Positions 1,817-64,000 of a stretch of 64,000 bases of DNA are shown here, one piece after another. Position 1 is the first letter of the stretch; each line of letters starts with the position of its first letter. A program made the position numbers and the translations under genes. This stretch comes from Candidatus Omnitrophota bacterium (GTDB lineage Bacteria; Omnitrophota; Gorgyraeia; Zapsychrales; JANLHA01): NCBI GenBank assembly GCA_031423615.1, contig JANPFV010000082.1, positions 4,208-68,207 on the forward strand. Reading direction: 5' to 3'. The notes under the pieces are model-generated. The model ran no database searches and had not been told where the DNA came from. It saw only the letters and a list, made by a program, of their open reading frames with translations.

Positions 1817-3400
1817 TTATTGCAAGGAATTGTTTGGTTGAGAGACTTTTTTACGGACAGCTATGACATGCGGTTCTTTAAAATTGTCTACAGGCACAAG
1901 ATTATGCACAGATTCACCGGCAATCTGCAGAAAAATATTATCAGAACATAAAAAAATACTGGTATATCCTTCATCTGTCAGAAAACGGAATTCATCTTGG
2001 CGCTTAAGATCATTCCGATCAAAGCGGATTTCGATGACCCGCACCATTGTCCCATTTTTAAGATGATAAACTTTCCGTTTCCAGAGAGAGTCGTTATCGG
2101 TCGTGATTTTGACCGCATCACGACTGAAAAGATAGTTGAATATGCCATAATAATCCCAATTGACCCAAAATACCCGATTATGCTGCAGATCGACCAATGA
2201 CATTCTGACAACACGCCTGTCGATCTTACAGTTATTTTTCCACTGCCCAAGGGGGAAGAACGCGGTGCACATGCGGGTGCGACTTCCGTCAGCCGTGTCA
2301 TACAAGACGGGAAATTTGATAAAAAATCCGCTCACGACAACTTGCCAGATCAATCCGATGATCAAGGTTGCGTATAAAAATAACCCCATCGCCCGATTCT
2401 GGAATCTTTTTAAAAAAATCAATCCCTCAAGGGCCAGCCAGGCCATCACAGGATAAATATACAAAAGATATTTGGGAGTCGTGTTCCCGCGAAAATAAAA
2501 AGCAAAGATGGGAAAAATAGCCAAGAAGCCCCATATGGCCGCCTGGTATTTTCTTTGGGACAAAAGACCCCAAAAGCCAATTATTCCCAAAATAATGATC
2601 GACAGAGGCATGGCCAGAGACGTATTTTTAAAAGGAAAGGAGTACTGGGCAGAAATGTCTTCAAAATGGGCTTGCGTAATCGAACGGATGGAGGCGATAG
2701 AGATATGGGCGAAATTGCCGAGGATTAAGAGGCTTATCGCAAAAACAGTAGAAAAAATAAAAATATTTTTTATGTCCTTTTTAAAATACAGGACCGCGAG
2801 CAAGCACGGGACCATAAAAACAATATCCAATCGAAAAAAAAAGGCCACGGCCGTGAGGACGGCGGCCGTAACCGTCGACAAAACCGTGATTTTTCGTGTC
2901 AGCAAATCCCCCGCCATGTACAAAAACAGCATGGCGGTAATGTTGGTATTATAGTAAGCGCCGCTGATCAAAATTTCATGGATCAATAAGGTAACACCGA
3001 TAAACGCTATGGCGAAAGTTTCGGACTTGAATCGTCTGACGATGAAATAACTTAAAAAGAGAATTAATACCAAGCTGACTTGAGCGATCATCGTTGACAA
3101 AAAAGCCAAGTCCATATGGCAGACTTTGGACATCGTCGTCAACATCGCATAGGTATAAGGCTGGACAGGATAATTGTAAAGAATCGGTTGGTCCACCCCT
3201 CGGATCATTTGCATCGCTCCAGCGATGATGTTACCAGCATCGCCTTCAAAAAAAGGATATGTCGTTAAAGTAAGAAAGTAGACTATATACAGAAAGTAGA
3301 TCGGTAAAAGAATTTTCTTTAATCGATCAGGCAGCATGACTTCTTTTGATTTGCGTTTCGTAGCAGTTAAGGGCAGCAAGAATAGTTTTGTCCATGTCAT
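1817..3400 (-). CDS. Polytopic integral membrane protein, probably a GT-C-type glycosyltransferase of the galactofuranose envelope cluster. The true start is probably the internal Met near 3337 (MLPDRLKK).
   Basis: At least 12 predicted TM segments; sits directly downstream of glf and a GT2; the annotated 5' end overlaps glf by 74 nt. Confidence 0.45.
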   Translation of the reverse strand: MTWTKLFLLPLTATKRKSKEVMLPDRLKKILLPIYFLYIVYFLTLTTYPFFEGDAGNIIAGAMQMIRGVDQPILYNYPVQPYTYAMLTTMSKVCHMDLAFLSTMIAQVSLVLILFLSYFIVRRFKSETFAIAFIGVTLLIHEILISGAYYNTNITAMLFLYMAGDLLTRKITVLSTVTAAVLTAVAFFFRLDIVFMVPCLLAVLYFKKDIKNIFIFSTVFAISLLILGNFAHISIASIRSITQAHFEDISAQYSFPFKNTSLAMPLSIIILGIIGFWGLLSQRKYQAAIWGFLAIFPIFAFYFRGNTTPKYLLYIYPVMAWLALEGLIFLKRFQNRAMGLFLYATLIIGLIWQVVVSGFFIKFPVLYDTADGSRTRMCTAFFPLGQWKNNCKIDRRVVRMSLVDLQHNRVFWVNWDYYGIFNYLFSRDAVKITTDNDSLWKRKVYHLKNGTMVRVIEIRFDRNDLKRQDEFRFLTDEGYTSIFLCSDNIFLQIAGESVHNLVPVDNFKEPHVIAVRKKVSQPNNSLQ

Positions 3401-4463
3401 TGTAGGCGTAATCTCCTAATCGTCCCCCGATGATAAGGTTTTCTTCCTGTTGGACCAAAGCCTTGTACTCCGCGACGATTTTTTGATTGTGCGGCGTGTT
3501 GATGGGATAAAATCCTTCTTTCATCGTACTGCGTTGAGATGTTTCGTAAAAAATAATGGTCTTGTTTTTGCCATACGGCCTCTCCGGGTGCAAATGCCGC
3601 GGCTCATGAATTCGCATGTAAGGCACGTCGGAATCGGCAAAATTCATGACTGATGTTCCCTGATAATCCTCCTCGTTGATGATAGCTCGCTGGCATTCGA
3701 TGACCCGCCATTCCAAAGGCCCGCAGGAATAATCAAAATACCGGTCAATCGGCCCGGTATAGATGATTTTTTCATAAGTTTTAAACTCATTGCGATGTTT
3801 AAAAAAATCACATTTGAGTCGCACTACAATTTTAGAAGACGATAGAAGTCTATCGAAAATCGAACAATATCCCTGAAGGGGAATGCCCTGCCAGGCCGCA
3901 TCATTAAAATACGTTTCGTCATAATTAAAACGCACCGGCAGCCGCGTGATGATGTTTGCGGGAAGTTCGCGCGGGTCCTTCCCCCACTGCTTCATTGTGT
4001 AACCTTTGATGAAAGCTTCGTAAAGCGGCCGGCCGATCAAGGAAATACATTTTTCTTCCAGATTATTCGGCACAGTGAATTTTTCCTGTTCGATTTGCTG
4101 TTTAATAAATTCTTTGGCTTCTGAGGGGCGAAAGTTACGATTAAAGTAGGTGTTGATCGTTTCTAAATTAATCGGCATTTGATAGACTTTATTTTTATAA
4201 GTCGTCAAAACCTGGTGCTTGTATTGGTTGAATTCCGTAAATCGCGTAATGTAGTCCCAAACGATCTGCGAGGACGTGTGAAAAATGTGCGTTCCGTAAG
4301 GATGATATTCGATGCCGGTTTCCGCATCGATTTTAGAATGGCAGTTGCCGCCGGTATGATCACGCTGGTCGATAACGAGCACACTCTTGCCCAGGTCATT
4401 GGCAATGCGCTCGGCGATGACGCTGCCATAAAAACCTGCTCCCACCACGAGATAATCGTACAT
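3327..4463 (-). CDS. glf: UDP-galactopyranose mutase.
   Basis: N-terminal FAD motif MYDYLVVGAGFYGSV and family-wide similarity across the full length. Confidence 0.9.
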   Translation of the reverse strand: MYDYLVVGAGFYGSVIAERIANDLGKSVLVIDQRDHTGGNCHSKIDAETGIEYHPYGTHIFHTSSQIVWDYITRFTEFNQYKHQVLTTYKNKVYQMPINLETINTYFNRNFRPSEAKEFIKQQIEQEKFTVPNNLEEKCISLIGRPLYEAFIKGYTMKQWGKDPRELPANIITRLPVRFNYDETYFNDAAWQGIPLQGYCSIFDRLLSSSKIVVRLKCDFFKHRNEFKTYEKIIYTGPIDRYFDYSCGPLEWRVIECQRAIINEEDYQGTSVMNFADSDVPYMRIHEPRHLHPERPYGKNKTIIFYETSQRSTMKEGFYPINTPHNQKIVAEYKALVQQEENLIIGGRLGDYAYNDMDKTILAALNCYETQIKRSHAA

Positions 4464-4472
4464 TTTTCCTCG

Positions 4473-5192
4473 CTAGAACTTCATGTTGGCCACACACTGC
4501 CACGTCTGCAGAAAAGCTCTGAAAGATGCTTTGAATAGTTTGCCCAACTTCAAAGAAAATTCTCCCGTCGTCCTATTGTGATGCGGCACGGCCACCTGCC
4601 AGATTCTGGCGTTCATTTTAGCCAGCCCCGCAGAGACAATGACATTGGGAGCAAAAGTGTTGTCGGGAATTTGATCAATGATCCGTATCAGAACGTCCGA
4701 ACGCATGAGCCGGTAAGGTACGTTCACGTCGTGCACGCCTTTTCCGGAAAGACCCGAAACCGTAAAACGGGAAATGGCGCTGACCAATTTACGCGGCAAA
4801 CTTTGCGATCTACCCTGCCGGATACCAAGGAGCGCATCATAGGATTGTCGTTTATGCCAGAAAAGGCAAAAAGATTCCGGAGGCATTTCATTGTCGCTAT
4901 CACATTGAAAGACCCATTGCGCTTCCTTGACCGCTTCATGATATCCCATCAAGATCGTCGGGCCGTGACCGCTATTCGCCTTATTGACAATTTTAATTCT
5001 GTCATTATTTTGAAAAAATTCCAATTCTTTTGCCGTTCCGTCTTTGGATCCGTCGTTGAGAGCAATGATTTTAAAATTGATATTGAGAACGGTGAACTGC
5101 TCATGCCAGCTTTGCACGACTTGTTTGATGCAGCCCTCTTCGTTGTAAACAGGCATGACCATCATTAAATCATAGCGGGAAAGATTAGGCAT
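4473..5192 (-). CDS. Glycosyltransferase family 2 (DPM1-like polyprenyl-phosphate sugar transferase type).
   Basis: MVMPVYNEE...LNDGSKDGT...CDSDNE GT-A motifs. Confidence 0.8.
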   Translation of the reverse strand: MPNLSRYDLMMVMPVYNEEGCIKQVVQSWHEQFTVLNINFKIIALNDGSKDGTAKELEFFQNNDRIKIVNKANSGHGPTILMGYHEAVKEAQWVFQCDSDNEMPPESFCLFWHKRQSYDALLGIRQGRSQSLPRKLVSAISRFTVSGLSGKGVHDVNVPYRLMRSDVLIRIIDQIPDNTFAPNVIVSAGLAKMNARIWQVAVPHHNRTTGEFSLKLGKLFKASFRAFLQTWQCVANMKF

Positions 5193-6033
5193 TCGCTTGA
5201 GAATAATTGATCAGTTGCCCGAGGGTCGTTTTCATATCTTTACGTTCGACAATCATGTCGATCAATCCATGCGCGAGGAGAAATTCGGCGCGCTGGAACC
5301 CTTCGGGAAGTTTTTGGCGGATGGTTTGTTCAATGACCCGCGGGCCGGCAAAACCAATCAGCGCCTTTGGCTCGGCCATAATAATATCACCGACACCCGC
5401 AAAAGACGCCATGATCCCGCCCATGGTCGGATCGGTTAAAATGGAAATGTACAACAGACCCGCTTCATGATGACGCGCCAGCGCCGAACACGTTTTGGCC
5501 ATTTGCATCAAGGAAAACATCCCTTCATACATGCGCGCCCCGCCGCCGGATCCGGAAACAATAATGACCGGAAGCTTTTTCTTGATGGCATATTCGATAA
5601 TCCGCGTGATGCGTTCTCCGACGACCGAACCCATGGACCCCATAATAAAACGGGAATCGGTCACCGCAATCCCCGCTAATTTCCCCTCAATTTTTCCCAC
5701 ACCGGTAATGACAGCGTCCTTAAGGCCGGTCAGCTTTTGATCAGCGGCCAGCTTGTCCTTGTATGTCTTAAGACCTTTAAAGTCCAGAGGATCTTGCGAT
5801 ATCAATCCGGCGTCGTGCTCTTCAAATGATCCTTCGTCCGTCAAAAGTTCGATGCGCTCAGCGGCGGTCAAAGAAAAATGATACCCACACTGAGGACAAA
5901 CATTCTTATTGGTCTTTAACCCTTTGACATAGGAAGGAGATTCACATTCCGGGCATTTCGACCAAATGCCTTCCGGAATATTGCGTTTGCGCACACTGAC
6001 TAAGGTATATTTATTTTTTCCGAAAAGAGCCAT
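5185..6033 (-). CDS. accD: Acetyl-CoA carboxylase carboxyltransferase beta subunit.
   Basis: N-terminal Zn ribbon CPECESPSYVK...CPQCGYH followed by a carboxyltransferase domain (GSMGSVVGE, SGGARMYEG). Confidence 0.9.
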   Translation of the reverse strand: MALFGKNKYTLVSVRKRNIPEGIWSKCPECESPSYVKGLKTNKNVCPQCGYHFSLTAAERIELLTDEGSFEEHDAGLISQDPLDFKGLKTYKDKLAADQKLTGLKDAVITGVGKIEGKLAGIAVTDSRFIMGSMGSVVGERITRIIEYAIKKKLPVIIVSGSGGGARMYEGMFSLMQMAKTCSALARHHEAGLLYISILTDPTMGGIMASFAGVGDIIMAEPKALIGFAGPRVIEQTIRQKLPEGFQRAEFLLAHGLIDMIVERKDMKTTLGQLINYSQANA

Positions 6034-6054
6034 AAAAATTTTTCCCTGAAAAGA

Positions 6055-7320
6055 TTATACAATCCGGCGCGATGTCAATCCTGAAAGGACTTTGGGGTAA
6101 AAATAGGTGGTTTTAGGCGGCATTTTCTCGCCATTGAGCGCAACAGCCTTCAGCTGGGAAATCTTGACGGGATTCATGATAAAACCGGCTTCGGCGATGC
6201 CCTCATCAACCTTGGTAATGACCTCGACGGAATCCTTGGTATAAACGATGTCTTCGGATTTAACACCCAGTTTGTCAAAAACAAAATATTTGAGAATGGT
6301 GGCATCGAGACGGCGATAATCCTTGGACCCTTCCTTGATCGTTTTGTCGATAAGGGCTTTATTTTTCAGACGCAAAAGCATATATCCATCCTTGGTATAA
6401 AGACCAAAGGCATGCTCATTTTGCCCGGCCTTGGCCAAGAGCACCATAAAATCATTTTTGGCTTTAATCTTGTCCATGCGAAAAAATTCCTCGAGGAAAG
6501 AAAGCTGACCCGGGAGCTTGGTCACGATGCGATGCATAGGAAAAATTTTCAAATCCTTAGAATCAATATTGGTAAAATAGGTCATCACATAATTGAAAGG
6601 TTCCTGCCCGGTCGTTTTACCCGCCTGAGCCATTTTTTGACGGCGGATTTCGCACGCCACTTCGTAACGGTGATGACCGTCGGCAATGAAAAGAGCCTGT
6701 TGGCTCAAGGAGGACACAATTTGATTAACAAGCTTAGGGTCATCCAACTTCCAAAACAAATGCTTGACCCCGTCGTCATCCGTAACATCAAAGAGGGGTT
6801 TGGTAATAGCTAGATGGGTGATAAAAATTTTCTCCACCTTGCGTTCCCGGTCAGAAAAACAGACAAAAATGGGACTCAAATTAGCCCCGACGGCAGTCCA
6901 AAGCTTAAAACGGTCTTCCTTGGCCGCCGCATGGGTATTTTCATGAGGAAATATTTTGGAATCCTTGGCGTCCTGAATTTTCATGGCCGCAATAAAGCCC
7001 AGCCGGCTGTGACGCTCACCCTGGACCTTATATTCCTGACGATAATAATAAATAGAAGGATTAGGGTCCTGAACAAGCACACCGCTTTGCAGCCACTGAT
7101 TAAAAAGTTCTTTGGCCCGCGTATATTTATTCTGCTCCGCATTATCAGCGGGGTTGTCCTTGGCATGTTCCAAGCGGATAAAATTATATTCACTCCGGGC
7201 CAGAAAACCGCTTTGCTGGGCCGCCGAAATAACATCATAGGGGGGACACATGACCTTAGACGGGTTGGTGATCTTTTCAGGATTGTAGTGAATACCTTCA
7301 AAAGCCTTGATTTCGGTCAT
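6055..7320 (-). CDS. DUF1015-family protein.
   Basis: Length of about 420 aa and an ADGHHRY motif typical of DUF1015. Confidence 0.55.
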   Translation of the reverse strand: MTEIKAFEGIHYNPEKITNPSKVMCPPYDVISAAQQSGFLARSEYNFIRLEHAKDNPADNAEQNKYTRAKELFNQWLQSGVLVQDPNPSIYYYRQEYKVQGERHSRLGFIAAMKIQDAKDSKIFPHENTHAAAKEDRFKLWTAVGANLSPIFVCFSDRERKVEKIFITHLAITKPLFDVTDDDGVKHLFWKLDDPKLVNQIVSSLSQQALFIADGHHRYEVACEIRRQKMAQAGKTTGQEPFNYVMTYFTNIDSKDLKIFPMHRIVTKLPGQLSFLEEFFRMDKIKAKNDFMVLLAKAGQNEHAFGLYTKDGYMLLRLKNKALIDKTIKEGSKDYRRLDATILKYFVFDKLGVKSEDIVYTKDSVEVITKVDEGIAEAGFIMNPVKISQLKAVALNGEKMPPKTTYFYPKVLSGLTSRRIV

Positions 7321-7402
7321 AGTTAAACTCCACGGTTTTATTCAAACCGTAATATCTTTCATTTTGAGCGAAATCCCGCCAGCCAGAGGCCATTGCGGGA
7401 TT

Positions 7403-7424
7403 AAAAAATCTGCTTTAAGCAGAT
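7403..7424 (-). terminator. Rho-independent terminator ending the dnaK-dnaJ-fmdB transcript.
   Basis: Minus-strand hairpin ATCTGC-TTAA-GCAGAT followed by TTTTTT. Confidence 0.6.
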
Positions 7425-7525
7425 CGGAATCTTTTGGTCAAAAGTTTTTGTATTTTTAGCGATGGTTCATATTACCAAAACAAGACAAAAATAGGTACGA
7501 AATTCTTTAAAATCTTCCCTGCCGA

Positions 7526-7819
7526 CTAAGATGAAGATTTTTTAGGCGGCAAGGCCGGTGCACTCGGTGCGCTGGCGCATCCACAGCCTCCAGAATGAGA
7601 GTGTCCGGCACCCGAAGCCGCAGGCGCGGCCGGTTTGTTCTTATAATCCGTTTCGTAAAATCCTGTCCCTTTGAAAATAATCCCACTGCCCCCTCCGATA
7701 TGGCGCACCAGAGTCATCTTGGCGCATTGGGGGCATTTTTTAAATTTTTTATCTCTCATGGACTGCAAAGCTTCGAACAAATGACCGCAGGCTTCGCATT
7801 CATATTGGTAGGTTGGCAT
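7526..7819 (-). CDS. FmdB-family zinc-ribbon protein; start re-assigned to MPTYQYECEACGH.
   Basis: CxxC...CxxC zinc ribbon at the N-terminus; a GGAG Shine-Dalgarno lies 8 nt upstream of the internal ATG. The track ORF begins 44 codons upstream and is probably over-extended. Confidence 0.7.
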   Translation of the reverse strand: MPTYQYECEACGHLFEALQSMRDKKFKKCPQCAKMTLVRHIGGGSGIIFKGTGFYETDYKNKPAAPAASGAGHSHSGGCGCASAPSAPALPPKKSSS

Positions 7820-7874
7820 AATTTTTCTCCGTTCCTGAATTATATCGATAAAAGTTTTGAGGTGAAGTCTAGTC

Positions 7875-9014
7875 TCACTTAAAAGCATTTTTAAACTTGT
7901 CGGCCAGCGAATCCGAGCCTGAAGAAATTTTTTCACCGCTGACACGAGCAAATTCCTCTAAAAGTTTACGTTGGTCAGAAGTCAAATGCTCCGGAACACT
8001 GATCATGACCTTCACATATTGCTCCCCATGCCCGCCGCCATGCAAATCCGGCATGCCCTTGGCTTTCAAGCGAAAAACTTTTCCGCTTTGTGTGCCGGCC
8101 GGGATTTTCATGGAAACATTCCCGCTCAATGTCGGCACCGAAATTTCTCCCCCCAACGAGGCCACCACAAAACTCACCGGAAATTCAAAATGCAGGTCTT
8201 TGCCATTGCGTTCATAAAGAGAATGACGTCGGACGAGAATGTATAAATACAAATCACCCGATCCGGCCGCTCCAATTTCTCCTTCGCCTTTGACACGCAA
8301 ACGCGTATCATTGTCTACCCCAGCCGGAATGTTGACATCGATATTGCGGGTGACCTTGACTACGCCTTGACCGTGACATTCCGGACAATAGTCGGTGATG
8401 ATCTTCCCCTGACCACCACAAGCGGAACAGGTTTGCGCCATACGAAAAAAACCATTGGACATGACGACCTGCCCTTGTCCTTTGCAGGTCGGACACGTTT
8501 TGGGCTTGCTTCCCGGTTTAGCCCCATTGCCGTCGCATGTTTTGCAATGCTCATGGCGAGGAACCTTGACCTTCTTTTTAACCCCGCTATAAGCTTCTTC
8601 CAGAGTGATTTCGACTTCATATTGAATGTCATGTCCCCGACGGGAACGTCCCGACCGTCCGCCGCCTTGCGTGCCAAAGCCCGCATTCCCGAAAAGATTA
8701 CCGAGAATGTCTTCCAGACCGGATTCACTGCCGAAAATACTGCTAAAATCGGCGCCCTTGAAAATATCCTCGGATGTGTAGCGCTGGTCAATGCCCGAAT
8801 GGCCGTATTGATCGTACATTTGCTTTTTCTGCGGATCCGACAATACGCCGTAAGCTTCGGAGATTTCTTTAAACTTTTCTTCGGCCGCTTTTTTTTCCGT
8901 TTCCGGAACGCGATCGGGATGGAATTTTAAAGCCAACGATCGATAGGCCTTTTTGATCGCAGTAACGTCCGCGTCTTTGGTGACACCTAGAATTTCGTAA
9001 TAATCTTTTTTCAT
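7875..9014 (-). CDS. dnaJ: Chaperone DnaJ; start re-assigned to MKKDYYEILGV.
   Basis: J domain with HPD, a G/F-rich region, and four CxxCxGxG zinc-finger repeats. Confidence 0.9.
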   Translation of the reverse strand: MKKDYYEILGVTKDADVTAIKKAYRSLALKFHPDRVPETEKKAAEEKFKEISEAYGVLSDPQKKQMYDQYGHSGIDQRYTSEDIFKGADFSSIFGSESGLEDILGNLFGNAGFGTQGGGRSGRSRRGHDIQYEVEITLEEAYSGVKKKVKVPRHEHCKTCDGNGAKPGSKPKTCPTCKGQGQVVMSNGFFRMAQTCSACGGQGKIITDYCPECHGQGVVKVTRNIDVNIPAGVDNDTRLRVKGEGEIGAAGSGDLYLYILVRRHSLYERNGKDLHFEFPVSFVVASLGGEISVPTLSGNVSMKIPAGTQSGKVFRLKAKGMPDLHGGGHGEQYVKVMISVPEHLTSDQRKLLEEFARVSGEKISSGSDSLADKFKNAFK

Positions 9015-11059: not shown

Positions 11060-11626
11060 TTATTCTTGTTTAATAGCAACCTTCACCTTGGCGGTTCTTA
11101 CAACCCGGTCACCGAGGGTATATCCTTTTTGCAACTCCTCTATGACCGTCCCTTCTTCTTTGTCCGACGGTTCCTGCATTAAAACCTCGTGACTGTGCGG
11201 ATCAAAGAGTTTTCCTGTAGCTTCGAGCGGCTTGACATTATTTTTACGCAGCAATTCATGGATCCGCGCCATGACCATTTCAACGCCTTTTAAAAAAGCC
11301 TGCTGGTCTTGATGATTTGCCTTGGCCGCGATAACCACCCGTTCCAGATCGTCTAAAATATGTAAAAAATCAGCGATCAAACCTTCATTCGCATACTTTA
11401 CAAATTCACTGCGTTCCCGGTCGGAACGTTTGCGCGCATTGTCAAACTCGGCAAGAAGACGAAGATATTTATCTTTATACTCGTCTAATTCCTTGCTGAG
11501 CTTGCCATGGTCCTCGCTGTTAACCGTGCCCATCTCCTCCGGCACATCCTGCGGAATCACCGCTTCTTTTTCATCCTTCTTATTTTCTTCATTCATTTCC
11601 ATCATCAATCCCTCACACCACTTCAT
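11060..11626 (-). CDS. grpE: Nucleotide exchange factor GrpE.
   Basis: GrpE coiled-coil plus a C-terminal beta domain (VIEELQKGYTLGDRVVRTAKV). Confidence 0.9.
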   Translation of the reverse strand: MKWCEGLMMEMNEENKKDEKEAVIPQDVPEEMGTVNSEDHGKLSKELDEYKDKYLRLLAEFDNARKRSDRERSEFVKYANEGLIADFLHILDDLERVVIAAKANHQDQQAFLKGVEMVMARIHELLRKNNVKPLEATGKLFDPHSHEVLMQEPSDKEEGTVIEELQKGYTLGDRVVRTAKVKVAIKQE

Positions 11627-58704: not shown

Positions 58705-58794
58705 CATCAACGCCACAGCCAAACGGCTGTGAGGCGTTGCGCCGTCGCAAAAACTCCGCCATCAACGCCACAGCCAAACGGCTGTGAGGCGTTG
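58705..58794. repeat. Two copies of a 35-bp near-perfect palindrome separated by 20 nt, in the divergent nifS / tRNA-Ala promoter region.
   Basis: CATCAACGCCACAGCCAAACGGCTGTGAGGCGTTG occurs at 58705-58739 and 58760-58794. The second copy's 3' end supplies the TTGACA -35 of the tRNA-Ala promoter, with TATATT -10 at 58815-58820. Confidence 0.55.
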
Positions 58795-58832: not shown

Positions 58833-58905
<73 letters not shown>

Positions 58906-59047
58906 CTTGTTTCTCTAAGTAGAGCGTCCCGCTTAACACGCGGGAAGAACACGATTTCGACTTTCGTCAGCTTTACTTGTTTCTCTAAGTAGAGCGTCCC
59001 GCTTAACACGCGGGAAGAACACGTTCTCGACTTTCGTCAGCTCCACC
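58906..59047 (+). pseudogene. Two tandem ~70-nt degenerate tRNA-3'-two-thirds-like units (D-arm 3' strand, anticodon arm, T-arm, acceptor 3' strand) directly abutting tRNA-Ala.
   Basis: The units begin CTTGTTTCTCTAA GTAGAGCG TCCCGC-UUAACAC-GCGGGA ... CGTCAGC, matching the tRNA-Ala framework (GTAGAGCG ... CGTCAGCTCCA). They have no 5' acceptor or D-stem partner. Unit 2 ends CAGCTCC-A-CCA. Confidence 0.55.
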
Positions 59048-59104
59048 AAGTTTTTTGTCGAAGACAAAATTTCTCCGAAGGGTCGCTGGTTTAGAATTTT
59101 TATT

Positions 59105-59188
59105 GCTGGAGTGGCGGAACTGGTATACGCGCTAGTCTCAAAAACTAGTCACTTCACGGTGGTGAGGGTTCGATTCCCTCCTCCAGCA
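59105..59188 (+). tRNA. tRNA-Leu (anticodon CAA), type II with a long variable arm.
   Basis: GCUGGAG acceptor, a GUGGCGGAACUGGUAUACGCGC D-arm close to E. coli tRNA-Leu, a CUCAAAA anticodon loop, a long variable arm and a GGGUUCGAUUCCC T-arm. Confidence 0.85.
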
Positions 59189-59220
59189 TTTATTTATCTG
59201 CTTTACCCGTCGGTATTTCA

Positions 59221-60306
59221 TTACTTACTTCCCTTCTCTGGCACACGTTTTGGCACAAAACCCAAGTCTATTGTTGTTACTTTCAGCCCTTGTTTGACCG
59301 CTTCCTTTGAGCTGTGGGCATAATGTTCAAGGATCGTCCGGGTGTCCTTATGGCCCGTTATAGACTTAATAACCTCCGTGTTCCCTGTCTGGTCAAGAAG
59401 GTTAGTAACAACCCGGTGGCGAAAAATATGCGGGGAGATCGGCTTCGTGATACCACATCTTTTAGCGGCCCATTTTACGCGCTCGTAAATTTTATTTCTG
59501 CCCTGCAAATTGCCTCTCCTGCTTGGAAAAACAAGACCTTTGGGATGATACAGTTTTCGTTTTCTTAACTGGTGAAAGTGTTCCGCTAAGATCATGACAT
59601 CCTGCTCTTGAAGATCGTGGGCACGTTCCACACCCGTTTTGGTTTCGCGGATATAGATTTTATTTGCCTCTAAATCGACGTCGCTGACTCGCAAATGCCT
59701 CAACTCGTCTCTGCGCCATCCCCACGTTGCCATCAAATAGACCCAAGGGAAAGTGATGATGTCGTTCTTCTGAAACCACAAAAGGATATTCTTAACCTCA
59801 ACATCTGTGGGAATCTGTACGACCTTCTTCACTTCTTTTAAATATCGTATGTTCTGGATAGGAGACTGATCAAAAATTTTGTCCTTAACAGCTTGGCAGA
59901 AAATTATCCTTAAATTACGAAGGTCACAGTTGATGCCGGCGGCGGAACGAGGCTTAGGCTTCGTCGTTTCTTGAGCATGGATATAATCACGGATCAAATT
60001 CTCGGTTATATCCTTTAAAGATATATCTCCGCAACTGGCTAGAAATCTGCTGAAACTGAGGGCTGTAAATTCACAGCGGATCTTCGTCGAAGGAGTCTTG
60101 TATCTCTTTTCAATGAACATAGCGGCAAAATCTGAAAACTTCAGGTCTTTCCGGGGCGGTTGTGTCCCCTCAACCTCACGACGTGTCGCCTCCTTGCGGG
60201 CGGCGGCTTGCGTATATTTATCAAAAGGTAATGGGTCATAATACCTAACGCCCTTAACACGCCACCAGATTTGCCAGTATCCTTTTCTTTTACGAACTCC
60301 GGCCAT
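59221..60306 (-). CDS. int: Tyrosine-type site-specific integrase; start re-assigned to MAGVRKRKGYW.
   Basis: C-terminal catalytic HIFRHRVVTNLL ... GHKDTRTILEHYAH (R, HxxR and Y); the stop lies 32 nt from tRNA-Leu. Confidence 0.85.
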   Translation of the reverse strand: MAGVRKRKGYWQIWWRVKGVRYYDPLPFDKYTQAAARKEATRREVEGTQPPRKDLKFSDFAAMFIEKRYKTPSTKIRCEFTALSFSRFLASCGDISLKDITENLIRDYIHAQETTKPKPRSAAGINCDLRNLRIIFCQAVKDKIFDQSPIQNIRYLKEVKKVVQIPTDVEVKNILLWFQKNDIITFPWVYLMATWGWRRDELRHLRVSDVDLEANKIYIRETKTGVERAHDLQEQDVMILAEHFHQLRKRKLYHPKGLVFPSRRGNLQGRNKIYERVKWAAKRCGITKPISPHIFRHRVVTNLLDQTGNTEVIKSITGHKDTRTILEHYAHSSKEAVKQGLKVTTIDLGFVPKRVPEKGSK

Positions 60307-60466
60307 CGCTCTCCTCAGAACAAGCCTTGAGGACTTGTTCAACATCAAAACGTCGGTGCTTCCCTATCCTAAGAGATTTAATTTTACCTTCCCGCACGTA
60401 TCGCATTACACTTGACGCTGGAACTTTTAGAATCTTCGCGATCCCCTCAACATCTGTGATGTGCAT
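60290..60466 (-). CDS. xis: Excisionase/AlpA-family HTH DNA-binding protein (58 aa), not in the ORF track; overlaps the int start.
   Basis: Hand-translated as MHITDVEGIAKILKVPASSVMRYVREGKIKSLRIGKHRRFDVEQVLKACSEESDGRSS; GGAGG Shine-Dalgarno 6 nt upstream. Confidence 0.6.
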   Translation of the reverse strand: MHITDVEGIAKILKVPASSVMRYVREGKIKSLRIGKHRRFDVEQVLKACSEESDGRSS

Positions 60467-60596
60467 TGGCTTCCTCCATAGTTATTTGCTTGTCTCGGCC
60501 ATTCTTTCTTGTCTAACAAGTAAGAATATATCCTAAAGCGTGGCGAATGTCAAGCAACTTTCTTGACTAGAAGGTAAGAAATGCTATGATTGGGTT

Positions 60597-60962
60597 ATGC
60601 GAAAATCGGAATATCCAAAAGAGGCCAAGACTCTCGGCCAAAGAATAAGAAAGAAGAGGATGGATTTAGGCTATACTCTGCTCGAAGTAGCAAAGGCGGC
60701 ACAAATAAGTGAAGGTTATCTTTCGCGGATCGAAGCAGACAAACAGATTCCGAACAGCCTTGTTGCTACCCGTCTTGCAAAAAAACTCGAGGACGATGTC
60801 AATTTTTATTTAATGGCGTCATTAAAAACAGACTTATCGACCGATATATTAAAGGAGATACTCAAGCGAATGGAAAAGTCCCCCTCCACGCCTGAAAGTG
60901 AAGTGCTAAAAACTATATTGGAGCAATTTCTGCCAAAGAAAACTCCCAAAAAACTTAAATAA
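60597..60962 (+). CDS. XRE-family (Cro/CI-type) HTH transcriptional regulator, likely the element repressor.
   Basis: HTH MDLGYTLLEVAKAAQISEGYLSRIEADKQIP; the promoter TTGACT-16 nt-TATGAT ends 6 nt before the ATG, so the mRNA is leaderless-like. Operator inverted repeats GTCAAG-N7-CTTGAC and CTTGT-cta-ACAAG lie upstream. Confidence 0.7.
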   Translation: MRKSEYPKEAKTLGQRIRKKRMDLGYTLLEVAKAAQISEGYLSRIEADKQIPNSLVATRLAKKLEDDVNFYLMASLKTDLSTDILKEILKRMEKSPSTPESEVLKTILEQFLPKKTPKKLK

Positions 60963-60967
60963 AACTA

Positions 60968-61345
60968 TCACCGCATAATACTTTTTTCTGCCAATTGTGC
61001 CGCAATCTTTAAACTTGCCACTTCATCAAATAAATCTTTACCGCTAATCCCTGCATGAGCTAAATTTTTGCTGGTAGGGATATGATCTACGGCTAATCCC
61101 AACTTGAGAGGTTCTTCTACAACAAGCTCAGCAATCTTAAAGATTCTTCCCGGATTATTAGGATCACGACGAGAAATTTCTAATTTGGCTCGTTCCGCCC
61201 AATCAACAGATAAATATTCCTCTTTTTTATTATCCCTAATCCGCAATAAATATGTCCCCTCTGTGCATTTCCCTGTGCGAGAGTCATAATTTACGCTAGA
61301 CACTCTCCGATGGAGATGATTATCATTCGGTATTTTCTCTACCAT
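60968..61345 (-). CDS. Cargo gene A: hypothetical protein of about 125 aa. Its start MVEKIP overlaps the stop of gene B in a TGATG arrangement.
   Basis: ORF translationally coupled to genes B and C; I recognised no domain. Confidence 0.45.
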   Translation of the reverse strand: MVEKIPNDNHLHRRVSSVNYDSRTGKCTEGTYLLRIRDNKKEEYLSVDWAERAKLEISRRDPNNPGRIFKIAELVVEEPLKLGLAVDHIPTSKNLAHAGISGKDLFDEVASLKIAAQLAEKSIMR

Positions 61346-61839
61346 CAATATCGACCCGCCCATTTCTTAAAAATGATCAATAACTCGGGCATAGAGCCAA
61401 CCTTGCTACCCTCCCTGACACCCATTACGGATTCCAAATAAATATAGTGTTCTTCTTTAGCGGTAAACCAGACAAGGAACTCGCTGTTATTCTTATACCA
61501 CTTCAAGAGAATGCCTCCATTAGGCTCAGGGGATACTGAAGGGAGCTTTAAAATTAAATTTTTATCTTCAGCTACTTTAGAAATAAAATAGTGCGCCTTG
61601 GCGATTGCATCGACGGTAATTTTTGTAGCCCCATAAGAATCCCAATCCTCACCCAAATTATTTAAATCAAGGATCTTCGATATAATTTCATGGCGAATGC
61701 GAAGATCTATCGAATTGATTTGGGCTTTAAGAATCTGAATATCTAACTCAGAAATAACTGAATGGGTTCTTCCCGTATTCGATATATCAATTTGATCATA
61801 ACGCATACTCGGGAGATCGTAGCTGATTATACTTTCCAT
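61345..61839 (-). CDS. Cargo gene B: hypothetical 164-aa protein.
   Basis: ORF separated by 1 nt from gene C; I recognised no domain. Confidence 0.45.
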   Translation of the reverse strand: MESIISYDLPSMRYDQIDISNTGRTHSVISELDIQILKAQINSIDLRIRHEIISKILDLNNLGEDWDSYGATKITVDAIAKAHYFISKVAEDKNLILKLPSVSPEPNGGILLKWYKNNSEFLVWFTAKEEHYIYLESVMGVREGSKVGSMPELLIIFKKWAGRY

Positions 61840-61840
61840 A

Positions 61841-62575
61841 CTAGTCCCACCTTGGGTTGAAATATTGATCTATAAAGTCTTTTTTAAATACCGCAAAGAA
61901 TAATTTCTTTTCAAACAAATGCGCCCCCTCGATCAAATCCATCAAACTATTATCCTGTAAATGTAAAGAGAACGCATCTATGTCGACCAAGGATCCAACA
62001 CTTACTTTTTCATTCTCAACTTTTCGGGTATTATTGGACAGCATGATTGTTGCCTGAAAATTCTGATATTCTAAATTTATTCTAAAATCGACCTTTTCTT
62101 CAACAATTGGCATTCCATCCATCGACAAAACAATATTGACTTTGTCTAAAATATTGTAGTCAAAAGTGTTCAAATAACGAATCCCCAACCTCTGATACTG
62201 ACTTACCACACCTGTGGATTTCAGCCGTTCAGCCATATCTCGGACTTTATCTTTTAACGACGCCCAGCCCATATAATTTTTCTGATTCACCAAAGAAATG
62301 ACTCGTCCACCAATCTGCAAAATTAACTGGTCATTTGTTAATTGCTTTAATGGTAAATACCGAAGTTGTGGATCTTGGTCACGAATAGCAGAAGGAAACT
62401 GTGCAAGAGGAAGGTCGTTGCTTTTGGGATAATCCTTACCAAATTCTAAAAATAGCTTATCAACAACGGCTTGATGGGACAACTCGCTTTCAAAACGAAT
62501 TTCTACTATAGCTTCCAGAATAGGAGCTGGATCGAGTTTTGTCGCCACCTTTGTTTTTTCTAAATCGAATATCAT
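61841..62575 (-). CDS. Cargo gene C: 244-aa protein, possibly TIGR04255-family (uncharacterised, sporadically distributed).
   Basis: N-terminal APILEAIVEIRFE pattern recalled as typical of TIGR04255. This is a weak assignment from memory. Confidence 0.4.
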   Translation of the reverse strand: MIFDLEKTKVATKLDPAPILEAIVEIRFESELSHQAVVDKLFLEFGKDYPKSNDLPLAQFPSAIRDQDPQLRYLPLKQLTNDQLILQIGGRVISLVNQKNYMGWASLKDKVRDMAERLKSTGVVSQYQRLGIRYLNTFDYNILDKVNIVLSMDGMPIVEEKVDFRINLEYQNFQATIMLSNNTRKVENEKVSVGSLVDIDAFSLHLQDNSLMDLIEGAHLFEKKLFFAVFKKDFIDQYFNPRWD

Positions 62576-62782
62576 AAATTTTATGTTTGAATTATACCAT
62601 TCTGCATATTGCTACACAATCATACACTAGCTTTTGTTTTTTACAAAATGAAACCCGACGCAACATTCTCTTTGAGTTGAATAAACGAACGTATTTGCAA
62701 CAGGCGGGAAAGTGCTTATTATGTGCGGAGATTTTTATACCCTTTATTCAACACGATATATTTTCATAAATGTCTTCTTAAA

Positions 62783-64000
62783 TCATCCAGCTGAACTTGC
62801 CGCTAATTCGGGCTCTCGGGCTGGCTCCTTAGGTGCTTGCCCTAAAAAAATAGGCAATGTCTGTGCGTTAACTGGCACAATATTGATGATGATGGGAAAT
62901 AGTCCTTGAATATTGATCTGCTCTAAATTCTGTTGCGGCAATGGCAACGGCACACCTTTACCATCGCGCTTGATTTGCAAATTCATATTCGTCGGGTCAA
63001 AGTCGATACCGCCGACGGCTGCAGATGAAGAAGTAGCTGCCCCACTAGCTTCTCCACTTATCGGCGCTGAGGCGGCCTTCCCATTATTGACCCCACTCGA
63101 GGCGGCGGCATTCGGAAAGAATATCCGCACAATAAGTCGCGGGTCGACCCTATATTTCGAACCAATTGCGCCGTAATCACCAAATCTGCCAATTTTCTCG
63201 GCGGTGATACCGCTAACGCTCATGAGACTACGGCCATTTTCGTCGACTAAATCACCAGAAAGATTAGTAAGCAATTTCGGATCAAATGCCGACTGATCCC
63301 GAGTACTTCTATGCGTTGTAAAAAAAAGCCCTACCCTTCCACCTAAAAAATACTCTGGGAACTTTAAAGCCAAAGCCAATTGTTGGTGGGTTAAACCGAC
63401 CGACCGCACATATTCATCGTCGGCTATCATTTGCTCTCTTTCCTCAGGGTAGACTATTTGTCCGTTTATCGACACTAACGATTCGAGTTGTCCGGGTTCC
63501 CAGACAGTCTGCGCAGGGGCAGCTTCATATAATCCTAATTCCAAACCGATTGATCCACGCAAAGGTATGTTGCCTGCACTAAAGTTTTGGTCATTAGGGA
63601 GTTCTTGCGTGTACGTTTCTTTAAAAGCCGGGTTCAAATTTAAAATATGCGGTATTCCGCCTGCCTTAGTTAATATATACATTTTTCCATTTTCGGCGCG
63701 AGGTTGACTTGTAAAAGCAATGACATCGTCCAGAAGAATATCAAAAACATTGGGTTCTTCACCATCTTTTCCAGCTTCAACATGTATTGCATTGTTTCTT
63801 ATTTCCAAGACCCTTATATCGGTCATAAAGCGGGGTAATTCTTTCAGCCGTTCTAATGTCGCTTCAGCCTGCTCAACAGTGAGCGATGGTCTTTGCATTA
63901 AAGATTCTGCTGAAACGGCAGAAACGTACTGGACAGGTCCTTTTGTATAATCGCCCTTTGGTGCCGGAGTAACCACTCCTGATACCTGAAATACCGGCGG
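62783..64000 (-). CDS. Cargo gene D: large hypothetical protein of at least 405 aa, 5'-partial (the reading frame stays open to the window edge), with a low-complexity Ala/Ser/Gly-rich C-terminal region.
   Basis: No in-frame stop between the track's GTG start at 63976 and position 64000. Separated from gene C by a 207-nt AT-rich spacer. Confidence 0.45.
   Translation of the reverse strand, partial: PPVFQVSGVVTPAPKGDYTKGPVQYVSAVSAESLMQRPSLTVEQAEATLERLKELPRFMTDIRVLEIRNNAIHVEAGKDGEEPNVFDILLDDVIAFTSQPRAENGKMYILTKAGGIPHILNLNPAFKETYTQELPNDQNFSAGNIPLRGSIGLELGLYEAAPAQTVWEPGQLESLVSINGQIVYPEEREQMIADDEYVRSVGLTHQQLALALKFPEYFLGGRVGLFFTTHRSTRDQSAFDPKLLTNLSGDLVDENGRSLMSVSGITAEKIGRFGDYGAIGSKYRVDPRLIVRIFFPNAAASSGVNNGKAASAPISGEASGAATSSSAAVGGIDFDPTNMNLQIKRDGKGVPLPLPQQNLEQINIQGLFPIIINIVPVNAQTLPIFLGQAPKEPAREPELAASSAG

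Follow-up and report, generated by a model that had tools for sequence, protein, structure and literature searches.

In the 64,000-nucleotide stretch of an Omnitrophota genome analysed here (GenBank assembly GCA_031423615.1, contig JANPFV010000082.1; hereafter the window), the DNA from position 59105 to at least position 62575 is read as the integrase-proximal part of a genomic island that has entered the 3' end of a tRNA-Leu(CAA) gene. We put the probability of this reading at roughly 80%, and the island probably extends beyond position 64000, the last of the window. The evidence comes from the genes next to the tRNA and the catalytic residues of the integrase, from the association of the integrase family with tRNA-Leu, from bounded islands and empty sites in relatives, and from the conserved promoter and operator sequences of a compact regulatory switch. 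The genes that define the integrase-proximal end are listed below.

59105-59188, plus strand: tRNA-Leu(CAA), the integration target (ARAGORN, with ends at 59104/59105 and 59188/59189; Rfam, 60.9 bits).
59221-60306, minus strand: tyrosine integrase of 361 aa (open reading frame (ORF) 59221-60348), transcribed toward the tRNA.
60290-60466, minus strand: 58-aa excisionase-family helix-turn-helix gene (xis), the first gene of the xis-int operon, with a 17-nt overlap with the integrase start.
60597-60962, plus strand: XRE-family helix-turn-helix protein of 121 aa, a repressor candidate, divergent from xis.

The stop codon of the integrase gene lies 32 nt past the end of tRNA-Leu as placed by Rfam, and the gene is transcribed toward the tRNA. 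A preliminary description of this DNA had stated as much, and ARAGORN, Rfam and Pfam agree with it. The likely start of the gene is the ATG at 60306, which has AGGAG ahead of it, and the same start was called on Logan contig L001, an independent assembly. The protein matches Phage_integrase (PF00589; 1.3e-24, 87.3 bits against a cut-off of 27.1) and the PHROG_1 integrase family (4.9e-44), and its N-terminal SAM-like domain matches SAM_5 (PF13102). All catalytic residues (R, K, H-x-x-R, H and Y) have counterparts in XerA (5hxy), and an alignment of 15 homologues showed R198, K223, H293, R296, H319 and Y329 to be invariant. The homologues, about 15 in number, are 39-46% identical to the integrase, and those with a named source are all from Omnitrophota. 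By its score against NF007246 (18 bits, with a cut-off of 434) the integrase is not of the P4 type; it forms a clade of its own, so far seen in Omnitrophota metagenome-assembled genomes (MAGs) and metagenomes.

The association with tRNA-Leu recurs in the relatives. For six integrase homologues the surrounding DNA could be retrieved, and in all six the gene faces a tRNA-Leu gene and stops 33-75 nt from its 3' end; among the named loci, L003 and L007 lie at tRNA-Leu(CAA), and L005, L110 and L116 at tRNA-Leu(CAG). Both L003 and L007 share the chromosomal site of the window (tRNA-Leu(CAA), tRNA-Ala(GGC), BirA and BioF), with entirely different cargo. Two of these islands are bounded by direct repeats. 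In L007 a 45-nt repeat (41/45), made up of the final 17 nt of the tRNA and the 28 nt that follow, recurs 10.2 kb away, and in L005 an exact 15-nt repeat of the tRNA end recurs at a distance of 7 kb, with housekeeping genes beyond it. The distal repeat candidate of L003 was weak (14/15, E 0.47) and was not used as evidence.

A metagenome scan with BirA alignment also recovered sites without the integrase. In L030, L031 and L033 the tRNA-Ala/tRNA-Leu(CAA) pair lies near NifS, BirA and BioF and is followed by no integrase; NifS begins 70 nt past tRNA-Leu in L033, and a conserved 173-aa gene follows tRNA-Leu in L030 and L031. Since the BirA proteins are only 54-61% identical, and the genomes are thus not close strains, these loci show presence and absence of the island, not the exact empty attB. 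The comparison with genomes lacking the insertion that had been proposed earlier was fruitful to that extent, albeit no exact attB was recovered. The claim it was meant to bear on, that this is the left end of an integrative element at tRNA-Leu, is supported by the six homologues at tRNA-Leu, the bounded islands L007 and L005, and the integrase-less L030, L031 and L033.

Other variable DNA also occurs at the site. In L034, a related metagenome contig, the tRNA-Ala/tRNA-Leu(CAA) pair is followed by 6.2 kb (2381-8638) that carry no integrase and may be a defence block of the Pycsar kind: they encode RadC, a C5 cytosine methylase, Vsr and a nucleotidyl cyclase (Guanylate_cyc, 2e-7), as well as a 409-aa protein that lacks annotation and a small hydrophobic protein. 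The tRNA-Leu(CAA) site has thus been seen empty, with int-xis islands and with other variable DNA, and is therefore a hot spot. The cargo of the relatives is mostly of the defence type and includes AbiJ/Abi_C, SLFN/AlbA_2 ATPases, restriction-modification, Bub-like and CTD10/MC6 genes, and also resolvases, so that the island family looks like a vehicle for defence cargo. In L115 (10449-18453) the genes behind XRE, xis and int encode BubE, a ThiF-like E1 and Multi_ubiq, i.e. a Bub-type ubiquitin-like system, together with a restriction enzyme of the EcoO109I type, a C5 methylase, Vsr and a MazG-like gene, a further sign that these islands carry defence genes.

The 3' end of tRNA-Leu(CAA) is the proximal attachment site, attL. 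By analogy with the direct repeats of L005 and L007, which span the last 15-17 nt of their tRNAs, the identity or crossover segment would correspond to the last 15-17 nt or so of tRNA-Leu, at about 59172-59188. Two further elements lie just beyond it.

59206-59213, plus strand: CCCGTCGG motif, within the 32 nt that separate the tRNA from the stop codon of the integrase gene.
59239-59257, plus strand: tandem TGGCACA-N5-TGGCACA, with copies at 59239 and 59251, in the final integrase codons.

The CCCGTCGG motif is att DNA that came with the island: CGTCG or CGTC is found about 16-28 nt past the tRNA end at all six other occupied sites and at none of the four integrase-less sites, and inverted copies of the CGTCG-type motif (AACGACGAG) lie inside the attR of L005 and L007. 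The TGGCACA pair, for its part, looks like a pair of arm-type integrase-binding sites on the P' arm. A tandem 7-mer pair with a spacing of 11-12 nt occurs at every occupied site, 45-70 nt past the tRNA and inside the 3' end of the integrase gene, and the two copies covary within each locus (TGGCACA in the window, L003, L110 and L116, TGGCGCA in L007, and TGACACA in L005). L007 and L005 each have the 7-mer pair again, with unchanged orientation, 130-170 nt to the inside of the distal repeat, which confirms the borders of these islands independently of the direct repeats; pairs near both ends are what would be expected of arm-type sites of the P and P' arms. The window has no such pair other than that at 59239-59257 at up to 2 mismatches, a level at which shuffled windows give about 1.8. 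The TGGCACA pair in the 3' end of the integrase gene and the anatomy of the att site go beyond what the preliminary description had observed.

L007 carries two additional traces (recorded at L007 830-850 / 11280-11299). A further TGGCACA-N5-TGGCACA pair lies just outside its attR and looks like the scar of a tandem island, which is probably why the L007 repeat runs past the tRNA. In addition, a 20-nt copy (19/20) of the 5' end of tRNA-Leu lies between tRNA-Leu and tRNA-Ala.

The small gene ahead of the integrase had been described as overlapping the integrase start by about 17 nt, and the ORF at 60290-60466 bears this out; a Shine-Dalgarno sequence, GGAGGA, precedes it at 60472-60477. Its earlier classification as AlpA/Xis-like survived in part. 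The 58-aa protein belongs to the excisionase family by its scores against HTH_17 (35.7 bits, curated cut-off 27) and TIGR01764 'excise', the excisionase family DNA-binding domain (32.3 bits, cut-off 28.8), and it matches PHROG excisionase families; its matches in the PDB, BldC and a phage Xis, were weak. AlpA membership was rejected, as Phage_AlpA (PF05930) was not matched at E <= 0.01, where HTH_17 and, weakly, MerR were the sole matches. In each relative a gene of 55-62 aa and of the HTH_17 type, in two cases with no recorded Pfam match, stands ahead of the integrase gene and abuts or overlaps its start. Across the six integrase-homologue loci these small proteins are 42-47% identical and the integrases 41-46%, and divergence in step with the integrase favours a cognate excisionase. 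The 58-aa protein, genetically linked to the integrase, is a candidate excision factor.

The XRE gene diverges from xis, as had been noted, and its product matches HTH_3 (PF01381; 5.7e-10, 39.5 bits against a cut-off of 23) and the PHROG_3 repressor family (3e-9). The helix-turn-helix domain covers residues 17-64 and is followed by a tail of about 55 aa that carries no annotation; Pfam gave no match to a C-terminal Peptidase_S24 domain. The region between the two genes contains the following elements.

60501-60527: operator candidate O1, a 27-bp palindrome, ATTCTTTCTTGT-cta-ACAAGTAAGAAT, with 12-nt arms of 92% complementarity.
60525-60553, minus strand: xis-int promoter, with -35 TTGACA at 60553-60548, a 17-nt spacer and -10 TATATT at 60530-60525 (11/12 consensus).
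60556-60580: operator candidate O2, an imperfect copy of O1, 54 nt away (direct repeat, 83% identity).
60563-60590, plus strand: XRE promoter, with -35 TTGACT at 60563-60568, a 16-nt spacer and a TG-extended -10 TATGAT at 60585-60590 (10/12 consensus).

In a consensus scan the 2.6-kb region around these genes gave 9 promoter-like sites, with 3.1 expected. The -10 box of the XRE promoter ends exactly 6 nt before the ATG at 60597, and the intervening tgggtt contains no Shine-Dalgarno sequence, whereas xis and int both have good ones of the GGAGG type. A leaderless XRE mRNA is a reasonable reading because of this short distance and the missing Shine-Dalgarno sequence, and we predict that the transcript is leaderless. 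The same 6-nt gap, again with no Shine-Dalgarno sequence, was found in six islands (the window, L113, L115, L112, L007 and L005), which makes a good comparative argument for leaderless repressor mRNAs. The preliminary description had likened this arrangement to CI-type repressors; the leaderless-like gap stands, but a self-cleaving repressor of the LexA/CI type was rejected, since the XRE protein lacks an S24 peptidase domain.

Two inverted repeats had also been put forward as operators, and both exist, with small corrections to their coordinates. CTTGT (60508-60512) and ACAAG (60516-60520) form the centre of the larger palindrome O1, the score of which was reached by 13 of 2000 shuffled spacers. 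The other repeat, GTCAAG-N7-CTTGAC, was rejected as an operator in its own right: GTCAAG (60549-60554) and CTTGAC (60562-60567) are the two divergent -35 hexamers, placed back to back. O2 had been missed. It is the only other match to a degenerate operator pattern in the 64 kb, where 0 were expected, and spans the -35 box and spacer of the XRE promoter, while O1 overlaps the xis-int promoter at its -10 box and expected transcription start. The XRE homologues are 49-71% identical, and an alignment of the spacer with those of three islands that have a homologous XRE gene (L113, L115 and L112) showed that both -35 boxes, both -10 boxes, O1 and O2 are kept; L112 comprises only the XRE gene and its upstream spacer. 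The layout of int-xis opposite XRE is shared by L113, L114, L115 and a 4,983-nt ENA contig. The XRE genes of L007 and L005 are not detectably homologous to that of the window in tblastn, and their spacers hold repeated motifs of the GTGAA-N5-TTCAC type. O1 and O2 are likely operators to which the XRE protein would bind, and the switch is, as far as comparison of the loci can tell, a conserved and portable cassette.

From these elements a working scheme can be proposed. Site-specific recombination would have placed the island in the 3' end of tRNA-Leu(CAA), with an intact tRNA regenerated at attL. A dimeric XRE repressor, made from a leaderless mRNA beginning at the A of the ATG at 60597, would occupy two copies of a palindromic operator of about 25 bp. 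On O1 it would mask the xis-int promoter at its -10 box and transcription start and keep the operon off, and on O2 it would cover the -35 box and spacer of its own promoter and thereby autoregulate. De-repression would lead to co-expression of the excisionase-family protein and the integrase from their overlapping genes; with no S24 domain in the XRE protein, induction would not proceed by self-cleavage. The integrase, acting at the core in the tRNA end and at the TGGCACA arm sites, would then recombine attL with a distal attR, and the island would leave as a circle. Mobility of this kind at the present day is presumed.

The composition of the DNA changes along the locus. GC content is about 46-49% to the left of the tRNA (50-59 kb) and 37-40% at 60.5-63 kb; that of the integrase gene, about 45%, is near the genome value. 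Behind the XRE gene lie three genes of low GC content that form the cargo operon, and an ORF that runs out of the window.

60968-61363, minus strand: cargo gene, 131 aa.
61345-61839, minus strand: cargo gene, 164 aa.
61841-62575, minus strand: cargo gene, 244 aa.
62783-64000, minus strand: ORF that runs past the window end (397 aa or more); its C-terminal domain is conserved and multi-copy.

The 244-aa protein matches TIGR04255 at 96.7 bits (cut-off 30), an uncharacterised family not mentioned in the literature searched, as well as PHROG_5464, and the 164-aa protein gave a weak match to the PADLOC candidate PDC-M32A (1.7e-6). No further annotation of the cargo was obtained from Pfam (E up to 5), PHROGs, NCBIfam, PADLOC or a sequence search of the PDB. 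The cargo is possibly related to defence, though no defence function is established for it. The XRE gene converges on this operon and does not head it. No Pfam matches to relaxase, oriT or type IV secretion functions were found in the visible part of the island or in the gene tables of the relatives.

Membership of the open ORF in the island is uncertain. It has no match in Pfam, PHROGs or NCBIfam, and its last 80-130 residues or so make up a strongly conserved C-terminal domain, with identities between MAGs of up to 95%. This domain was found at 18 loci and many times per Omnitrophota genome (L019 has four copies in 20 kb), each time preceded by an unrelated N-terminal part, and also in a 712-aa protein inside the L005 island.

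A number of observations weigh against the main reading, and they concern the far end of the island and the role of the 58-aa protein. The attR expected at the far border would repeat at least about 15 nt of the tRNA-Leu end, TTCCCTCCTCCAGCA, and might extend into TTTATTTATCTGC. The searches for it covered the 73,770-nt source contig as far as position 64000 and found none: with up to 3 mismatches allowed, the tRNA end does not recur in the window, blastn-short likewise returned no copy, and the best local alignment of 59150-59225 with 60960-64000 scored 20, with a mean of 19.4 for shuffled sequences. No second TGGCACA pair (up to 2 mismatches) occurs before position 64000. GC content returns to 44-46% after 62.6 kb, and the ORF found there belongs to the family that is multi-copy in Omnitrophota chromosomes, so that the island might end near 62.6-62.8 kb with no recognisable attR. 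The sole read-level hint of excision is ambiguous. It comes from L001, a Logan unitig from SRR20217181 that equals window positions 59159-61849 with no mismatches and carries int, xis and XRE. L001 starts exactly 30 nt (k-1) inside the 3' end of tRNA-Leu, which means that the assembly graph branches at the tRNA end and that a second sequence context shares this 30-mer; the branch could reflect an attB, attR or attP junction in the sample, or a second strain. Where exact-protein searches gave a result, it was a Logan contig of 2.7-2.8 kb from SRR20217181.

Taken together with the weak distal repeat candidate of L003, which indicates that decayed ends occur in the family, and with the tandem-island remnant seen in L007, the missing attR and arm-site pair, the recovery of GC content and the dispersed nature of the next ORF family suit a decayed, immobile remnant. 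Such a remnant would consist of int, xis, XRE and a few cargo genes, its attR would have been lost or degraded, and it would effectively end near 62.6-62.8 kb. We regard it as unlikely. The catalytic residues of the integrase, xis, both promoters and both operators are intact, and a protein with the C-terminal domain of the open ORF lies inside the bounded L005 island. Moreover, the bounded relatives measure 7, 9 and 10.2 kb (and L110 more than 10 kb), compared with 4.8 kb visible here, and the simplest reading is therefore that attR lies beyond the window. That attR would be found past position 64000 had been predicted earlier, and all the searches agree with it.

The point that weighs against an excision factor comes from L113 (8239-17222), a mosaic island in the Omnitrophota MAG GCA_020632515.1. 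Its window-type part comprises an XRE protein of 71% identity, a 58-aa protein of 78% identity and the operators, and this module is joined to an unrelated integrase (24% identity), located in tRNA-His, with an exact 21-nt direct repeat 9 kb apart. That integrase has a small helix-turn-helix gene of its own, of 63 aa, which overlaps its start; the cargo of L113 includes DUF2326, MC6 and CTD10 genes. The mosaic indicates modular exchange, and the 58-aa protein, which travels here with the XRE module, could be an excision factor, a switch regulator or both. It may thus be a switch regulator instead of, or besides, an excision factor.

Pressed further, the mosaic would make the XRE and 58-aa proteins chiefly a transcriptional switch, of the Cro/CI kind, of the Cox/Apl kind or a CapH-like regulator of cargo, with the 58-aa protein not an excision factor. 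The matches of the XRE protein to PADLOC HTH_VI (8.7e-11) and capH (3e-7) would fit such a role, as would the weak hits of the 58-aa protein in the PDB (BldC and a phage Xis). Nonetheless we find a pure switch improbable, given that in all six loci the HTH_17-type gene has diverged about as far as the integrase gene and touches or overlaps the integrase start, that the 58-aa protein passes the TIGR01764 cut-off, and that the XRE gene converges on the cargo operon.

The layout of the locus also resembles the switches of temperate phages and satellites, and the window might then show the left end of a larger prophage, or of a satellite akin to the phage-inducible chromosomal islands (PICIs), in which the XRE/xis switch runs a lytic or helper-induced cycle. 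The PHROG repressor, excisionase and integrase families are all matched, the 244-aa protein matches PHROG_5464, and the 10.2-kb island of L007 carries a small-terminase gene (Terminase_2). However, Pfam, PHROGs and NCBIfam revealed no capsid, portal, tail, primase/replicase or packaging gene in the visible 4.8 kb, and the cargo of the relatives is mostly of the defence type. In IMG/VR the integrase has no close relative, the single match being 22% identical (E 8e-6), and of the four IMG/VR contigs that carry a 22-mer of the tRNA end none has homologues of int, xis or XRE. A prophage or satellite is, on this evidence, quite improbable. Finally, a housekeeping chromosomal recombinase of the Xer type that stands beside a tRNA gene by chance, with no mobile element involved, is effectively refuted and was rejected: although the best NCBIfam and PDB similarities of the integrase are to XerA, XerC and XerD, its scores against Xer profiles fall far under the curated cut-offs (e.g. 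91.5 against 220 bits) and its match to PHROG_1 is strong (4.9e-44), the gene is lacking at the corresponding site of L030, L031 and L033, and it invariably comes with an HTH_17-type gene and a tRNA-Leu, with bounding repeats in L005 and L007.

The integrated island in tRNA-Leu(CAA) can be set beside several known systems, and the locus is a well-formed instance of a textbook class, that of the tRNA-integrated island with a lambda-like int/xis module and a repressor of the leaderless kind. Phage lambda has a tyrosine Int with core and arm sites, a xis gene that overlaps int, and CI expressed from the leaderless PRM transcript. The window shares with it a tyrosine integrase whose N-terminal domain is SAM-like, a small gene of the excisionase family that overlaps the integrase start, a repressor -10 box 6 nt from the ATG, and palindromic operators that overlap divergent promoters; tandem direct repeats that behave like arm-type sites lie near the att ends of the window and its relatives, at both ends in L005 and L007. 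Unlike in lambda, the repressor candidate is a 121-aa XRE protein with no S24 domain, xis-int lies directly opposite the repressor gene, the target is a tRNA, and no phage structural or replication genes are visible.

Islands at leuX, the tRNA-Leu(CAA) gene of Escherichia coli, carry P4-type integrases. The likeness to these islands lies in the insertion at a tRNA-Leu 3' end, the integrase that adjoins and faces the tRNA, the short tRNA-end direct repeats at both borders (in the relatives), the variable cargo at a hot spot and the deviating GC content. The islands described here differ in that the integrase is not P4-type, in their small size of 7-10 kb, and in their explicit XRE/xis switch.

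As in P2 (Cox) and 186 (Apl), a small helix-turn-helix protein is encoded first in the operon that opposes the repressor. The likeness is one of layout, no sequence relationship having been tested for or found, and the promoters are back to back here and not face to face. A dual role in excision and in the switch is speculation, albeit one that the L113 mosaic, in which the helix-turn-helix protein travels with the repressor module, would fit. PICIs resemble the relatives in size (7-10 kb), in the integrase at one end, in a divergent master repressor of the XRE type and, for L007, in the small terminase. They differ in that their integrase and repressor genes are co-oriented and xis lies on the other arm; moreover, no gene for a primase/replicase or for packaging is visible in the window, and no helper phage is known. 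With defence islands at hot spots the relatives have in common their Abi, SLFN/AlbA_2, restriction-modification, Bub-like and CTD10/MC6 cargo, and the L034 block lies at the same site, whereas the cargo of the window has no established defence function.

The DNA upstream of tRNA-Leu has repeats of its own, next to a second tRNA gene.

58833-58906, plus strand: tRNA-Ala(GGC) (ARAGORN and Rfam).

A 70-nt tandem repeat of 2.4 copies at 58880-59046 starts in the last 27 nt of tRNA-Ala(GGC). It consists of three segments that resemble tRNA 3' ends and are about 81% alike, with two identical 43-nt spacers between them; the spacers contain the hairpin TCCCGC-TTAACAC-GCGGGA and are absent from all loci fetched. 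The repeat may represent scars of past integrations at tRNA-Ala, or a duplication. Just upstream of a promoter-like site for tRNA-Ala, a 33-nt perfect hairpin, TCAACGCCACAGCC-AAAC-GGCTGTGAGGCGTTG, occurs in two exact copies (58707-58739 and 58762-58794), 55 nt apart, and Logan contig L002 breaks inside this repeat.

Omnitrophota are uncultured, and to our knowledge almost nothing is known about their mobile elements. A literature search on Omnitrophota integrases at tRNA genes returned nothing specific; one paper covers unrelated large elements. A wider, rather doubtful proposal is that the loci represent an undescribed family of small (7-10 kb) tRNA-integrating Omnitrophota islands with interchangeable anti-phage cargo. 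A portable cassette of leaderless XRE gene, operator pair and HTH_17 protein would be movable onto unrelated integrases (at tRNA-Leu or tRNA-His), the 58-aa protein would perhaps be bifunctional in the manner of Cox or Apl, and some members, such as L007, might be phage satellites. If this were true, satellites such as L007 would be the first proposed for Omnitrophota.

The locus leaves current concepts unchanged. Together with its relatives it provides an annotated set of parts, from the integrase and the tRNA-Leu it targets to candidate core and arm sites, a putative excisionase and a compact switch, which might serve as integration tools. The exact 6-nt spacing between -10 box and ATG in six islands is a conserved pattern that predicts leaderless repressor expression outside the model phages, and in this lineage the 3' flank of tRNA-Leu(CAA) gathers variable DNA that is largely of the defence type.

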